Shown: positions 1,537 to 11,626, counted from the stretch's first letter. The stretch: 64,000 bases of DNA from an uncultured Holosporaceae bacterium (GCA_949290705.1 CASESI010000014.1:37802-101801), one strand, 5' to 3'. The notes: generated from the letters alone by a model not told the origin. Numbers and translations: made by a program.

Positions 1537-2267
1537 ACATTGTGATGCATATGAAAAGCTCTCGCAATACACAAACATATTATTTTTTTTGCTCCTGCTA
1601 TTTTTAATAACCTGGAACATTCATTAATCGTGGCACCCGTTGTAAAAACATCATCAATTAAAATTATATTCTTCCCTTCTATTTCCTTTTCATTGCGTAT
1701 CATAAAAGCGTTCTTAACATTACGAATTCTCTTTTTAATATTACCTTGTTGAGGAACTGTATTCTTAATTCTTATCAAATTATTGTGCGATACTTTTATA
1801 TCAGAAAATTTATTTAAGTGCCTTGCTATAAGTGCAGTTTGATTATAGTGCCTTTGAAATAACCTTTTAAAATGTATTGGAACATAAACTACCAGATCTG
1901 AAGTATCGAATTTATTTTTATATTTTTTGTACATGATATTTGCAAAAAATTTAGCTATGTAAGTGGCATTTCCATGTTTCAATGCTAAAATCGCACCTTT
2001 CGAAAACTCATCATAATTGAATATAGCATCGATCTCATCATATTGTTTTGACTGATTTAATGTTCCCAAGCATGATACACAAAACGAATTGTCAAACGGC
2101 AATGGAGCGCCACAATCTTTACATGATGGTTCATTTATAAAGTCAAGTTTCATGAAACAATCTTTACAAATTGCATGTGGATCAACAATGTATTTTTTAC
2201 AATATATACAAGTCGGTGGCACTAAAAAATCCAGTAAACTATTAAACAAATATTTGAAAATTTTCAT
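1533..2267 (-). CDS. comF: ComF-family phosphoribosyltransferase-like protein
   Basis: N-terminal CxxC...CxxC...CxxC...CxxC zinc-ribbon pattern and C-terminal PRTase motif IILIDDVFTTGATI. Its ATG overlaps the stop of the giant gene (TAATG). Confidence 0.75.
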   Translation of the reverse strand: MKIFKYLFNSLLDFLVPPTCIYCKKYIVDPHAICKDCFMKLDFINEPSCKDCGAPLPFDNSFCVSCLGTLNQSKQYDEIDAIFNYDEFSKGAILALKHGNATYIAKFFANIMYKKYKNKFDTSDLVVYVPIHFKRLFQRHYNQTALIARHLNKFSDIKVSHNNLIRIKNTVPQQGNIKKRIRNVKNAFMIRNEKEIEGKNIILIDDVFTTGATINECSRLLKIAGAKKIICLCIARAFHMHHNV

Positions 2268-11200: not shown

Positions 11201-11626
11201 ACCATAATACAATTTCAATCCATCTTCCAATGAATTACGCATTTTTTTAGCTTTGAGTATACGATTATTTATTTTTTTAATTTCCTCTATATCTTTTTTA
11301 GGAATCAAAAACTTGTAATTTTGTTGTAATGCGGAATTATCATCTATATTTGCATTTCGATGAGAAACAATATTTTCATTTTTTGTTGTTATTTTGTTGG
11401 GTAATATTTTTATATTCTTTATATCATAATGCTTGAGATTAATTGTATATCTATATTTGTACTTCTGGTTATGTATTCTCCTGATTTTTTTATGAATTCT
11501 TTTTATCAAGTACTTTGTTTTAACTATCAAATCCTGTAATTGTTTTTTTTCAAAATCGAACGATTGTGTATATGCTGGACGAATTAGCATTAAAACTACT
11601 AGAATTATTACAGATATACACTTCAT
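2267..11626 (-). CDS. giant (3119 aa) secreted/surface coiled-coil repeat protein, function unknown
   Basis: Uninterrupted 9.36-kb ORF. N-terminus MKCISVIILVVLMLIRPAYTQ is signal-peptide-like. Long K/E/N/Q-rich heptad-like tracts, internal repeats and Gly/Ala hydrophobic segments. No catalytic motif recognised. Confidence 0.8.
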   Translation of the reverse strand: MKCISVIILVVLMLIRPAYTQSFDFEKKQLQDLIVKTKYLIKRIHKKIRRIHNQKYKYRYTINLKHYDIKNIKILPNKITTKNENIVSHRNANIDDNSALQQNYKFLIPKKDIEEIKKINNRILKAKKMRNSLEDGLKLYYGDDWRKKIYQNKEHVKNLQALLNIEYKNAQRIKVFLISNMIDNKNARNYYTIRYSKLLHDVELSRQQLDLALNEEQRNVGKIRYLQAVLKNRKYDVETFEQNFTSMVINNDPLGTTATEISKIQQRINQLNKEKSEIQKQIEDEQNKENPNQNKLEELNERLQNTKSEIVKNEATLTEIQNTGVIQENNDNADLESERKKELITKLNEAVEKEDIVRNDLVSTVIQDPNNDGKIDAAKQKFDEAKSEREKVADEVKKQYNDPFNNHNEGDSSQNNIPADSQNVNNPLDIFKKNLNFGKESPQETLNGSSKNDRPQNTSIPNSSGTESGYVNGNAKGSLTGTNGSKSIFDKAKEALSGLFRTKTSQKRLSQKLDDITPNNSKGQQGRGPNIIDKFATHSSSIPQSSTPKSESWLQGIKNFFSGGRGDTNSRQRTRQQKKLQKLEDQLKIFKVQEQIKEVQKKLKDQKTEVTPTVINAPEQENPKRETQYNDVAEQILQEKANQLDHDTSDTQNQAEAPYEEKADGPIVTTYKMSKVNNPFVTMDSKITTLDDIVDSNLEDIGVLQNDLDDLNNLKRRIMELESLLKNITDPSEREELQKDIDTAKRIYEDKESALKNKHGVSSGADVGEALTEKIDKKQGVVDKAVIAKAGIVGGPAAEQSARESIAKRDEENDKQKKKNLKDEIKRCEAIISNPKASNAERTKAIENKSRAELEKVKLNLKDKKAKIDSIKSELSNPDTTNERKQILLFDLENAIKEYNKLAEQYGQEPIQNTLAEEKIINDAGNSVKGLEEKSSPKDTESSTNSKTIDGNNQRSNTPVLLKDVEQEITAKAEMEKTQEEIDTKKKEIAETRAEQGRIESDINRSKSKIADIESDMKKLSNLEKRIMDCDTSNKSGQKKLLELTKQQMALQGTLAEKYSCDPSDLKNEMKSQLKVEKNNQKKLQNQRRTTSKTLNQLEQELSDMTTAQMAAVRTNSKVTKSTTHDQQEPITSHQIETNDTSKSNPTEIQEQESSDKQQKKRIVSLSDVEEEAKSTEKEDSKSNSSKVTLDDVEKTASEKSSKWDTVKEKLSNAGSAISTAAINVGAGISNAASSTKNFVTNNASTIATATGIAATVVAGAAVAGGVAAVASNWDDIKEKANDVKDAIGDNVSDIKSSIGEKITTVKDIVGGKVSDIKDSFTEKANSVKDVISDKVDDIKENVSESVNNVKEKLSDIKDNISDKVNDVKESISDKVEAAKNTVNNIKDIVSDKVNTVKEALSPIANAVKTVASSTAGLAGATLGLAGTAIATGSNLLASGADALNDKLSGNTNNTNAEELKNTSNNNVGGALLNLAGSALGLTGTAMAAGSGLFANITDGLSDKINALTNKINGTEVVNNDMLNPNTISSNMHNASGSNVKLGSKEIAQNADNIKQQLTETAKSILANKELTGRLEFQTDSKGNRINVAALLGTVAAGGVLSAADIDILNDPKIKSAIEVLENEYNVLGLVGKGIADVLNEGTKTVNDIKSEIETKAFLNSSSMDDSAKYKGQLKSIDFTIDGKTISMFDIVSKIADGSATPEEMKALASNNEALKIINQLDFNSGTNVGNFINNAFSKNGIEPSEEIYKAPTITENVGDNIVNKDGIQEEKVNIVEKDVSKVIKQYSDKADKILNTSVIGDCLKEIDKTQPEGVKITDLLTRISNGEKILQTEINVVIKDPGVINSIKDMEKLYGVSVIGLLTEYASKYDLVEPAKHATLANEKITLTEDYKTFGDISLKNILTCIEEGRVSDINPEHLQKLLDGTSNGLKSKVQEIEVKYDVKIIDALEQASSKLLEEKISNAKNTAVSISKSEIQEKLKEENTKIQSRNNEILDQYNKKVEEQKSVLKNVSGSINNILENHADLFDSVGYSSANKSALEDLSSMLDKLQRETDQDKREKLTSELHSFMEENHNLLVAVNQEFPGTVNMTLIKMNSTFEKEPILEQLKTEDEIEKEIRENSSPYDLNITVGKLNDDKVQIGVQESTLNDTKELLSAINDDKELTHQQEEKLKNLLSNKSELKVIEHSTGSAIIDHLENKYNQVKKLESEKQEFYKHINEIKEKETESTNSINKSFGYGKNGNQLFEKIKNIDFESSNRVNIKNLMEKIANSETVTKKEVDMILSDKELVEKIKNVEKEENVKIIDKLEKSVNNGVNYSISAKAKNINDKLTIEMSNSYFGGIDVKDIISKIENGEFSKINHDDLKILLTPASEGGLKDQLSAVEKELNINITDVIENANGIKISEKVEEFKTEKSKYQSLMKNDTEESSKHLERLENSPYNTQNILDKLSVEPKVNSYSENTKRMIEENNETKSRNKVKKKEYENAKDLQKKFVKSTVINLQSISEDTNNFTKDESSKLSEIVDALKELNDNGDIDDAKGKIGEFITTSPELVEKVEAIYGDKLGFENLYSNLNEIKEPEYEELHQIENLQSEGYDKDLLETKEKIKDIFEAEHSGKELSEEQKDFVKDLYQNNRELITEIENKYDVKIGDYFSYINSRIDENWNSKNINEANNSKPREAKFIDTTKKSIENISNQAKTLVTHEFTHDALKSLEKKYPTKISISKVLDKIKNGEEISKEVVNNIFADSTITSEMHNIENKTGVKILDMISEYASEYTTKPIRESAKSDLIKVSDGALHVYIGDTKIKDLLSDIASGNDISKYKEYIEELNSNEAKQKGLQLLETECGIDIKSKLEFVSNEIKTKELHVLHNNVQSAISSINKTAIDELLNSDHADINISKEEAVSVAEALNAIENGESLEKYKEAIRPLYESGRLESLDEKLGLPISECMKYVSMVDENTYRGNKVIVSEQIGMSDLVGKEKISRNDMLNRKENGIQENSSHPINNMITQFTDYINEKMELLNNKMKEVDKKIATFEEMKNSMQQEEIHTAEKDGGHTNIAVNEEEIKDERIPTEEAILGKEHKVDIHFEEKNGSSHEAARHGFKTNVKTQTFSQAS
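7430..7810 (-). repeat. about 12 tandem 33-nt (11-aa) coding repeats inside the giant gene
   Basis: Protein reads DDIKEKANDVK DAIGDNVSDIK SSIGEKITTVK DIVGGKVSDIK DSFTEKANSVK DVISDKVDDIK ENVSESVNNVK and so on. The DNA shows a recurring ttatcagaNat...tccttaatat pattern. Confidence 0.8.

Follow-up and report, generated by a model that had tools for sequence, protein, structure and literature searches.

A small family of giant all-alpha proteins with a signal-like N-terminus and a new repeat module in AT-rich Alphaproteobacteria

Introduction

Few genes of host-associated bacteria are as poorly understood as those for giant, lineage-specific exported proteins, which are mostly dismissed as orphans. 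The stretch of DNA analysed here (64,000 nucleotides, GCA_949290705.1 CASESI010000014.1:37802-101801; hereafter the window, with positions counted from its first letter) raises the question of what such a protein is and where it would act, since a single ATG-started open reading frame (ORF) of 9.4 kb on its minus strand, at 2267..11626, encodes 3119 amino acids (aa) and a stop. We find that this giant is a member of a small undescribed family of giant all-alpha proteins of 3,100–5,800 residues in an uncultured, AT-rich clade of Alphaproteobacteria. An earlier note on this DNA had called it an orphan giant, a label that does not hold in the strict sense, as a small family of giants occupies four 50%-identity clusters. 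The all-alpha architecture, the module and the family are undescribed in any library searched, and literature and accession searches found no paper on these samples or on the giant protein; giant orphan exported proteins are themselves a known kind. We tentatively read the giant as a Sec-exported, membrane-associating scaffold at the envelope or the host interface, and hold this reading at a little short of even probability. The giant now has a definable family (four lineages, members of 3.1–5.8 thousand residues), and its definable module and clear boundaries between constrained and unconstrained parts make it experimentally tractable piece by piece, namely as the cassette (aa ~1200–1500), the modules and the tail.

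The gene is intact and selectively maintained

The frame is fully open from its ATG start, in agreement with the uninterrupted minus-strand ORF of 3119 aa that the earlier note had described. The G+C content of the window is ~30%, at which stops make up ~8% of random codons, and 3119 stop-free codons by chance are therefore excluded (~e^-258). Assemblies from NCBI, ENA and Logan contain exact or near-exact full-length copies. Only 5 nucleotides separate the ENA copy (P0001) from the window, and further assemblies add complete variants to the giant's cluster, one of 3119 aa with 99.9% identity and one of 3127 aa with 96.9%. A Logan assembly holds a 3212-aa ortholog (P0002) with 87% identity and identical synteny, and the synteny is kept in two further lineages, those of P0002 and P0003. 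The ORF is thus intact in at least five assemblies and in four lineages. Tandem repeats at the DNA level were not found within the gene, so the assembler is unlikely to have been misled there.

Selection was estimated as the ratio of nonsynonymous to synonymous substitution rates (dN/dS, Nei-Gojobori) between the window's gene and P0002. The value for the whole gene is 0.29, and by region it is:

aa 1–200: 0.11
aa 201–400: 0.31
aa 401–700: 0.63
aa 701–1200: 0.50
each block of aa 1201–3119: 0.09–0.22
housekeeping neighbour genes: 0.04–0.18

Insertions and deletions relative to P0002, one of them of 83 aa at aa ~629, all fall within aa 400–1030, bar a single residue. Constraint is as strong over the C-terminal 1,900 residues as in core genes and is weak midway through the N-terminal half. 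Because the gene is intact across assemblies and its dN/dS shows purifying selection, it is real: genuine, intact and selectively maintained. The opposite explanation, that the ORF arose by misassembly or by chance from skewed composition or belongs to a pseudogene in decay, can point to a sense strand that is 44% A and that alone yields spurious antisense ORFs of 350–440 aa. Set against an open frame of a length beyond chance at 30% G+C, intact relatives in several assemblies, clear purifying selection and the absence of DNA tandem repeats, it is hardly credible, and we reject it.

Two antisense ORFs do lie inside the giant (6921–8225, plus strand, 434 aa; 8577–9617, plus strand, 346 aa), both rich in S, L and F. 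Their positions are not kept in the P0003 locus and we rejected them as genes; given the A-rich sense strand, such long antisense ORFs are compositional artefacts.

A repeat module of five predicted helices

At aa ~1585–2960 (~1375 aa) the giant carries 11 copies of one ~55–65-aa module (family consensus VDVKDLLEKIANGEELTKEEIKKLLSNPELKKELKELEKEYGVDIVDVLENY), laid out as a leading pair followed by three ~450-aa super-repeats. Some 1350 aa of degenerate modules had been noted here earlier; the modules are indeed present, and they are copies of a definable repeat domain rather than a degenerate remainder. A hidden Markov model (HMM) seeded on eight copies recovered three more. The 11 copies are:

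6695..6871, minus strand: module 1, aa 1586–1644; family HMM, independent E 1e-16
6413..6571, minus strand: module 2, aa 1686–1738; family HMM
6023..6184, minus strand: module 3, aa 1815–1868; family HMM, opens super-repeat 1
5762..5935, minus strand: module 4, aa 1898–1955; family HMM
5018..5176, minus strand: module 5, aa 2151–2203; outside the seed and recovered by HMM, E 3e-5, then 1.6e-16 with the family HMM
4685..4846, minus strand: module 6, aa 2261–2314; family HMM, opens super-repeat 2
4421..4597, minus strand: module 7, aa 2344–2402; best-conserved stretch relative to P0003 (71% identity, aa 2301–2400)
3647..3808, minus strand: module 8, aa 2607–2660; outside the seed and recovered by HMM
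3299..3460, minus strand: module 9, aa 2723–2776; opens super-repeat 3, the copy modelled singly
3044..3208, minus strand: module 10, aa 2807–2861; family HMM
2759..2911, minus strand: module 11, aa 2906–2956; weakest copy, E 1e-9

An AlphaFold2 model of aa 1790–2240, built with internal and orthologous repeats as the alignment, is all helical, with a mean predicted local distance difference test score (pLDDT) of 73.7 that rises to mostly ~90 or higher at aa ~1979–2119, between module pairs. Module 9 on its own, modelled with 14 upstream residues included and a 48-sequence alignment, is predicted to form five helices (pLDDT 84, predicted template modelling score 0.63). Foldseek searches of predicted-structure tiles, proposed earlier as a check, were run for these two models and returned no counterpart from the PDB: the best match had E 2.1 for the 451-aa model and E 1.8 (TM score 0.33, unrelated) for the single module. 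Two module alignments were also used for sequence profile searches of the PDB, in which no match fell below E 0.004 and those obtained were unrelated. Lacking a Pfam, NCBIfam, PDB-sequence or Foldseek-PDB counterpart, the module is new as judged from sequence and modelled fold, and it merits a domain-family entry.

The module pattern …[ST]xEE[IL]KK[IL]L.NPEL…L…YG[VI]D[IVL]..[VL]L resembles the short helical Nif11 (PF07862) and SHOCT-like domains. In the distant family member P0005, Nif11 sums to 25.4 bits over aa 3401–5761 against a cut-off of 23.8, with no single stretch passing; one of 48 modules matches, weakly (E 0.029), and the window protein gives no match. Nif11 domains occur as a single N-terminal leader or standalone, whereas the giant's modules form arrays, and kinship of the module with the Nif11/SHOCT-like domains is unproven.

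Three motif readings were rejected. The 'YG-[VI]-D' turns were considered as helix-hairpin-helix (HHH) elements like those of topoisomerase V-like (HhH)2 arrays, and no HHH was among the 25 families shown for the 48 modules, nor was there a fold match to (HhH)2 or SAM-like domains. The 'D.I.NGE' motif was considered as an EF-hand, and its ligand positions misfit on inspection, with weak EF-hand_15 matches in only 2 of the 48 modules. The sequence HEFTH at aa 2705 is not a zincin motif, because P0003 reads HKFTH there.

Behind the array lies the end of the protein:

2270..2449, minus strand: conserved C-terminal tail, aa 3060–3119; …GGHTNIA…ERIPTEE.I.GKE…HFEE..GS.HE.ARHGFK.N…S/T-rich…QAS

This His/Lys-rich tail aligns in all family members, including the distant P0004 and P0005 (…HII.DP.F…F.HERG..E..HEHAAKHN…AA), and is the sole non-module stretch that can be aligned across all lineages. 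In each of them the last ~30 residues are hydrophilic and net positive, and the tails end in small residues (…SQAS, …AAAS, …AAAA).

The giant belongs to a small family

An exhaustive hmmsearch of 1.84 billion cluster representatives (50%-identity clusters) with a module profile of 65 columns returned seven proteins, four of them convincing:

P0001 (self): 3119 aa, E 2.6e-153, 11 modules
P0003: 3480 aa, E 1e-105, 11 modules
P0004: 4832 aa, E 7e-45, 19 modules
P0005: 5761 aa, E 1.5e-41, 19 modules

The remaining P0006–P0008 were rejected as unrelated repeat or phage-fibre-like proteins. A word-indexed search with the full protein found nothing beyond the giant itself and P0002, a genome-contig scan with the giant, which covers close patterns only, found no relative, and the module half had no tblastn match among plasmids and phages.

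Every member has an N-terminal signal-like peptide, a Gly/Ala segment ahead of at least 11 modules of ~55 aa, and a His/Lys-rich tail. P0003 is 42% identical to the giant over its full length, with 18–39% over the first 1,200 residues and 37–71% thereafter. Its locus, on a Joint Genome Institute metagenome contig, has the same HSP20, giant, ComF, DapF gene order, and the housekeeping genes there are 60–80% identical to those of the window. P0004 and P0005 have only the modules (23–33% identity) and the tail in common with the giant; their genes are flanked on one side by those for AlaRS and a secreted orphan protein and on the opposite side by L19-TrmD-RimM genes, after which come a gene for a TLC ATP/ADP translocase and hfq. 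The N-terminal half of P0004 contains ~13 scattered Gly/Ala hydrophobic segments, and the P0005 cluster gathers nine proteins of 5752–5765 aa found in different assemblies. A partner gene conserved across the family lineages was not found in the compared loci.

In both distant lineages (L084, 7245–9899; L085, 6542–9730) a signal-peptide orphan of 884 and 1062 aa, respectively, directly precedes the giant on the same strand. The two orphans are 27% identical to each other, have no counterpart in the window or in L083, and could be a lineage-specific partner. P0005 (L085) also contains, at aa ~2240–2700, extra repeated units of beta-like appearance (…VMVVNKTIGKDGKIIEESRPA…, …NVTLHHVYKDVDGNEV…), which have no Pfam match and are absent from the window protein.

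A signal-like N-terminus, a fast-evolving spacer and a membrane-type cassette

Ahead of the modules the following features were distinguished:

11564..11626, minus strand: signal-like peptide, aa 1–21; n-region MK, 13-residue hydrophobic core CISVIILVVLMLI, then RPAYTQ
10877..11563, minus strand: basic N-terminal region, aa 22–250; alignable with P0003 (HYD..., MR.SLE..L..+YG..W, KIR.L...LKNRK.DV..FE)
8027..10876, minus strand: fast-evolving spacer, aa 251–1200; heptad patches, S/N/G/Q-rich stretch, the 83-aa indel site
7805..7897, minus strand: Gly/Ala-rich hydrophobic segment, aa 1244–1274; ASTIATATGIAATVVAGAAVAGGVAAVASNW, 31 residues
7409..7804, minus strand: ~12 tandem 11-residue repeats, aa 1275–1406; consensus D-x-[IV]-[GS]-[ED]-K-V-[ND]-D-[VI]-K
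7127..7405, minus strand: two glycine-zipper-like segments, aa ~1408–1445 and ~1468–1500; …AGLAGATLGLAGTAIATGSNLL… and …GGALLNLAGSALGLTGTAMAAGSGLF…, Kyte-Doolittle ~1.3

Translation reproduces the N-terminus quoted in the earlier note (MKCISVIILVVLMLIRPAYTQ), and its reading as a signal peptide is supported by the hydrophobic, signal-like character of this segment (Kyte-Doolittle 2.0). A hydrophobic signal-like N-terminal segment is found in all four lineages, though the sequences there do not align. Over the basic region that follows, nucleotide identity to the 87% lineage is 99–100%, which may reflect recombination. The same high identity (99–100%, ENA copy against the 87% lineage) extends over window positions ~11230–12230, that is, the 5' end of the giant, the intergenic region and the HSP20 gene. 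Elsewhere in the giant identity drops to 75–95%, and in the neighbouring orphan gene to ~50–65%. Synonymous divergence (dS) from the 87% lineage is 0.03 for HSP20 and 0.10 for giant codons 1–200, compared with ~0.23 elsewhere, a mosaic that suggests recent inter-lineage recombination or constraint at the nucleotide level.

The spacer evolves fast (dN/dS 0.31–0.63; 22–39% identity to P0003). The several hundred residues of heptads reported for this part of the protein exist only as three patches of strong periodicity (aa ~197–310, 673–700 and 981–1040) and do not form a continuous run, whereas the S/N/G/Q-rich low-complexity stretch was placed correctly and corresponds to aa 403–576 (nucleotides 9899–10420). 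It is the fastest-evolving part of the giant, with 55–66% identity to the 87% ortholog, a dN/dS of 0.63 and indels. An RGD at aa 565 was rejected as a meaningful motif, as it is not kept even in the 96.9% variant.

The membrane-type cassette spans aa ~1205–1500 and consists of the Gly/Ala helix, then the 11-mers, then the two glycine-zipper-like segments, in line with the Gly/Ala core and 11-residue repeats that had been recognised earlier. Inside the giant no stretch is more hydrophobic than the segment at aa 1244–1274 (Kyte-Doolittle 2.09), which has a crude sum on the Hessa scale of +1.6 kcal/mol, marginal for a transmembrane (TM) helix; for the Gly/Ala segments overall the crude sum is +1 to +3 kcal/mol, marginal for translocon-mediated insertion. 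In P0003, P0004 and P0005, too, a segment of this kind lies ahead of the modules. The glycine-zipper likeness rests on GxxxG-type spacing visible by eye only, and with the cut-off relaxed to E<=10, a Pfam search of the Gly/Ala regions from four members of the family still listed no glycine-zipper family (Rick_17kDa_Anti, Gly-zipper_Omp; SlyB-like).

The 11-mers show a power of 10–15 at 11/3 periodicity. On an 11/3 helical wheel, positions 3, 7 and 10 form a narrow hydrophobic face bordered by Lys at 6 and 11, with acidic residues at 1, 5, 8 and 9 on the polar face. By this sequence pattern the repeats are a predicted class-A amphipathic helix as in apolipoproteins and LEA-3 proteins. Matches to Apolipoprotein (PF01442; 38.8–48.2 bits, cut-off 90), YtxH (19.2–27.5 bits, cut-off 37.5) and LEA_4 (16.4–23.4 bits, cut-off 51.1) all stay below cut-off, as do further matches of the cassette to ApoLp-III, DUF883, ApoO and Phasin. 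The cassette thus has, as far as its sequence tells, the physico-chemical signature of lipid-surface-binding helices, and by analogy with apolipoprotein, LEA and YtxH proteins the 11-mer region probably works by reversible binding to lipid surfaces.

A 708-aa orphan with a signal peptide just beyond the window start (L001, 21607–23733; ortholog L083, 18310–20400) is weakly similar at its aa 71–192 to the Gly/Ala and 11-mer cassette (E 9e-5 to P0003) and bears a faint Apolipoprotein mark. It may, by sequence, be a small paralogue of the giant's membrane cassette.

Comparison with known families

Searched over its full length against Pfam and NCBIfam, the protein gives no match above cut-off, only the amphipathic-repeat matches below it, and the lack of a catalytic domain asserted earlier is borne out. 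The same holds for the other absences listed in the earlier note: ankyrin, TPR and LRR have no Pfam match at E<=1; a regular-expression scan found no GGxGxD and there is no RTX/HemolysinCabind Pfam match; and the C-terminus, which ends …KTQTFSQAS, has no Autotransporter (PF03797) match in Pfam or NCBIfam at E<=1. Homology to Sca, RTX or SMC proteins, any of which would have overturned the first description, was looked for and not found. There is no Walker A motif and no SMC_N or AAA Pfam match that would indicate an SMC/Rad50 ATPase, and the models of aa 1790–2240 and of the single module, being wholly helical, show no beta-helical or beta-rich passenger. Genes for an ATP-binding cassette (ABC) transporter, a membrane fusion protein (MFP) or TolC, as expected in a type I secretion system (T1SS) setting, do not adjoin the giant, whose hydrophobic N-terminal signal also departs from T1SS substrates, which lack a Sec signal. 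An Inc-type bilobed hydrophobic domain of 40–60 aa is absent, the protein having a single 31-aa segment and two weaker ones ~25 polar residues apart. Nor does the protein resemble a polymorphic toxin, since the C-terminal region has no Pfam match, the downstream gene is ComF-like and not an immunity gene, and the tail is conserved. The only type III secretion system (T3SS) genes seen in the window are flagellar.

Several known systems resemble parts of the giant. The apolipoproteins (ApoA-I/A-IV/E, apoLp-III) and group-3 LEA proteins share with its central ~130 residues the tandem 11-mers, the 11/3 periodicity and the class-A charges, and in YtxH and DUF883 (ElaB/YqjD), as in the giant, amphipathic repeats adjoin a Gly-rich hydrophobic helix; YtxH and DUF883 proteins are membrane-anchored, with a layout of Gly-rich TM segment plus amphipathic repeats. 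All of these are small proteins, however, the matching region is <5% of the giant and the scores are far below cut-offs. Rickettsia Sca proteins and RTX, LapA and SiiE adhesins are, like the giant, very large, repetitive, exported and possibly from a host-associated bacterium, and Sca autotransporters have an N-terminal Sec signal too. The giant differs from them in being all-alpha, without beta-barrel, beta-helix, Ig-like repeats, GGxGxD or adjacent T1SS genes. Chlamydial Inc proteins and the vacuole-membrane effectors of Coxiella, Legionella and Anaplasma combine moderately hydrophobic helices with long coiled-coil or helical regions, as does the giant, whose family occurs in a clade that includes bearers of ATP/ADP translocases; in contrast to them, the giant lacks the bilobed domain, has a Sec-type rather than a T3SS or type IV secretion system (T4SS) signal, is ~10x larger and shows no sequence or fold similarity. 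Rickettsia RARP-1, a Sec-exported ankyrin-repeat protein of ~570 aa that has been reported to be periplasmic, has the same layout of Sec signal, disordered or variable region and C-terminal array of small helical repeats, whereas the giant's repeat is an unclassified five-helix module and a membrane cassette is added. By analogy with this precedent, such proteins may stay in the periplasm and not reach the host.

Proposed role and its alternatives

We suggest that the N-terminal signal peptide would carry the chain through Sec across the inner membrane, that the fast-evolving coiled-coil and low-complexity N-terminal half would act as an extended, weakly constrained spacer, and that the central cassette (Gly/Ala helix, class-A 11-mers and glycine-zipper-like segments) would fasten the giant onto, or partly into, a lipid bilayer. 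The conserved C-terminal half, with its 11 five-helix modules and intervening helical bundles, would then serve, at the envelope or the bacterium–host interface, as an extended multivalent platform for binding, and the His/Lys-rich tail could be a recognition or anchoring element. Sec export is argued for by a signal peptide kept across otherwise non-aligning lineages, and specific conserved contacts of the modules by the weak constraint on the spacer set beside the high constraint on the module array. Being only marginally hydrophobic, the Gly/Ala helices need not arrest in the inner membrane and could join another bilayer. An exported, membrane-associated role is plausible in view of the conserved signal peptide, the amphipathic and glycine-rich cassette and the pattern of selection, none of which points to a particular membrane; a host-interaction or surface role is, as in the earlier note, an inference.

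A number of points weigh against this proposal. The main tension is that the protein begins with a Sec signal and ends in a conserved tail that is hydrophilic and net positive, with no visible route across the outer membrane: there is no beta-barrel, no T1SS or two-partner secretion (TPS) partner beside the gene and no T4SS gene in the window. The tail resembles signals of the VirB/D4-type T4SS, which are read in the cytoplasm, and this conflicts with Sec export. Were transfer truly to stop at the helix of aa 1244–1274, the modules would be left in the cytoplasm. The signal peptide would be cleaved at a predicted site, …PAYT before Q, that is weak. The binding platform is argued from architecture only, because the module has no recognised fold or family relative. 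Finally, for the organism of the window an intracellular lifestyle is suggested only indirectly, by the TLC genes in the P0004 and P0005 loci and by an acetoacetyl-CoA synthetase in L084 that is 72% identical to the window's and links L084 to the window lineage; as signs of host association of the clade, these two observations count in favour of the proposal.

Some of these points would find their place if the giant were a translocated host-membrane effector of Inc/Cvp-like kind, delivered by a T4SS or another route, with its helices and 11-mers in a host or vacuolar membrane and its modules facing the host cytosol. The internal hydrophobic segments are merely marginally hydrophobic, as is typical of TM segments in secreted effectors that avoid insertion into the inner membrane; the last ~30 residues have the hydrophilic, net-positive character of VirB/D4-type C-terminal signals in all lineages; the clade includes TLC-bearing bacteria; and the exposed half evolves fast (dN/dS 0.5–0.63). 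Yet substrates of a T4SS or T3SS do not usually carry a conserved N-terminal signal of Sec type, neither the window nor the relatives' fetched loci showed a gene for a T4SS or for a T3SS other than the flagellar one, the bilobed Inc domain is missing, and a module half as slow as housekeeping genes is atypical of arms-race effectors. We consider such an effector unlikely. A protein anchored in the inner membrane, whose N-terminal 1,200 residues are exported by Sec until aa 1244–1274 stops transfer and whose 11-mers and modules form a cytoplasmic scaffold, would draw on the hydrophobicity of that 31-residue stretch, on the comparable segment just ahead of the module array in every member, and on the weak match of the adjoining 11-mers to YtxH/DUF883, membrane-anchored proteins of the same layout. 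The crude insertion energy is positive (+1.3 to +2.7 kcal/mol), however, the ~13 scattered segments of P0004 are hard to square with an orderly polytopic topology, and no cytoplasmic partner or domain was recognised, which leaves this arrangement distinctly unlikely.

A classical giant adhesin or toxin, secreted by a T1SS (RTX, LapA, SiiE) or a type V secretion system (T5SS; Sca, TpsA), has in its favour size alone, small-residue C-termini that loosely recall HlyA and an Omp85/POTRA gene ~7 kb away in the source contig. The missing motifs and domains (GGxGxD; autotransporter, TPS, Ig-like and cadherin-like domains), all-alpha rather than beta-rich models, a His/Lys-rich tail whose last residue is not aromatic, and the absence of a barrel and of adjacent ABC/MFP/TolC genes largely refute it, and we regard it as very improbable.

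The Sec-exported scaffold, then, is the reading we favour, with a small share of the probability left to mechanisms other than those named here, and it can be taken a step further. The five-helix module might represent a new domain superfamily, and the family a Sec-exported tether of a symbiont clade, with the cassette in a host-derived or outer membrane and the modules binding a conserved host or envelope partner; this is a possibility, though on the unlikely side. If true, this tether could provide a physical link between the bacterium and a membrane or organelle of its host. Should the modules bind a host or envelope partner, the family would represent interface proteins of a new type within a clade of uncultured symbionts.

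Genomic setting and organism

The giant gene is flanked by genes for HSP20, a ComF-like phosphoribosyltransferase, DapF and an amino-acid permease. Its start is separated by 146 bp from the divergently transcribed HSP20 gene (11772–12239), and no strong Shine-Dalgarno sequence was seen upstream of it. At the other end its TAA stop overlaps the ATG of the ComF-like gene (TAATG), and the two are therefore probably co-transcribed. The Omp85/POTRA gene mentioned above belongs to the same contig. Several orphan neighbour genes likewise open with signal-like peptides, a point in favour of the proposed role. One of them, at 12502–14034 on the minus strand, encodes a 510-aa protein with the signal-like N-terminus MKKLILLSLMFGGMGIVDAYASA and no Pfam match; its divergence is extremely rapid, with dN 0.47 and dS 1.05 relative to the 87% lineage and an identity of only 26% to its syntenic counterpart at the P0003 locus.

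GroEL from the window shares 63–69% identity with those of many Alphaproteobacteria, which places the organism to class level only, with no close species among the matches listed; the lysyl-tRNA synthetase is class I. Both support the alphaproteobacterial host assumed earlier, which by sequence appears as an AT-rich unclassified alphaproteobacterium. The accompanying label 'reduced intracellular' is not borne out by the window, which encodes enzymes of peptidoglycan and fatty-acid synthesis and many transporters, among them UhpC/GlpT-type and amino-acid antiporter transporters. Flagellar genes are also present (FliK-like, 51781–53259; FlgE, 54079–56769, unusually long at 896 aa), and the organism is therefore not a minimal, non-motile endosymbiont; a TadE-like pilus protein is encoded at 41701–42444.

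A SulP/STAS ORF at 58453–59409 may be truncated, its match to the Sulfate_transp profile being confined to the C-terminal part. Between 54000 and 62000 the G+C content climbs from ~0.30 to 0.38–0.43, and a tRNA-Arg(TCT) gene (56780–56856) and the class I lysyl-tRNA synthetase gene lie within this raised stretch.

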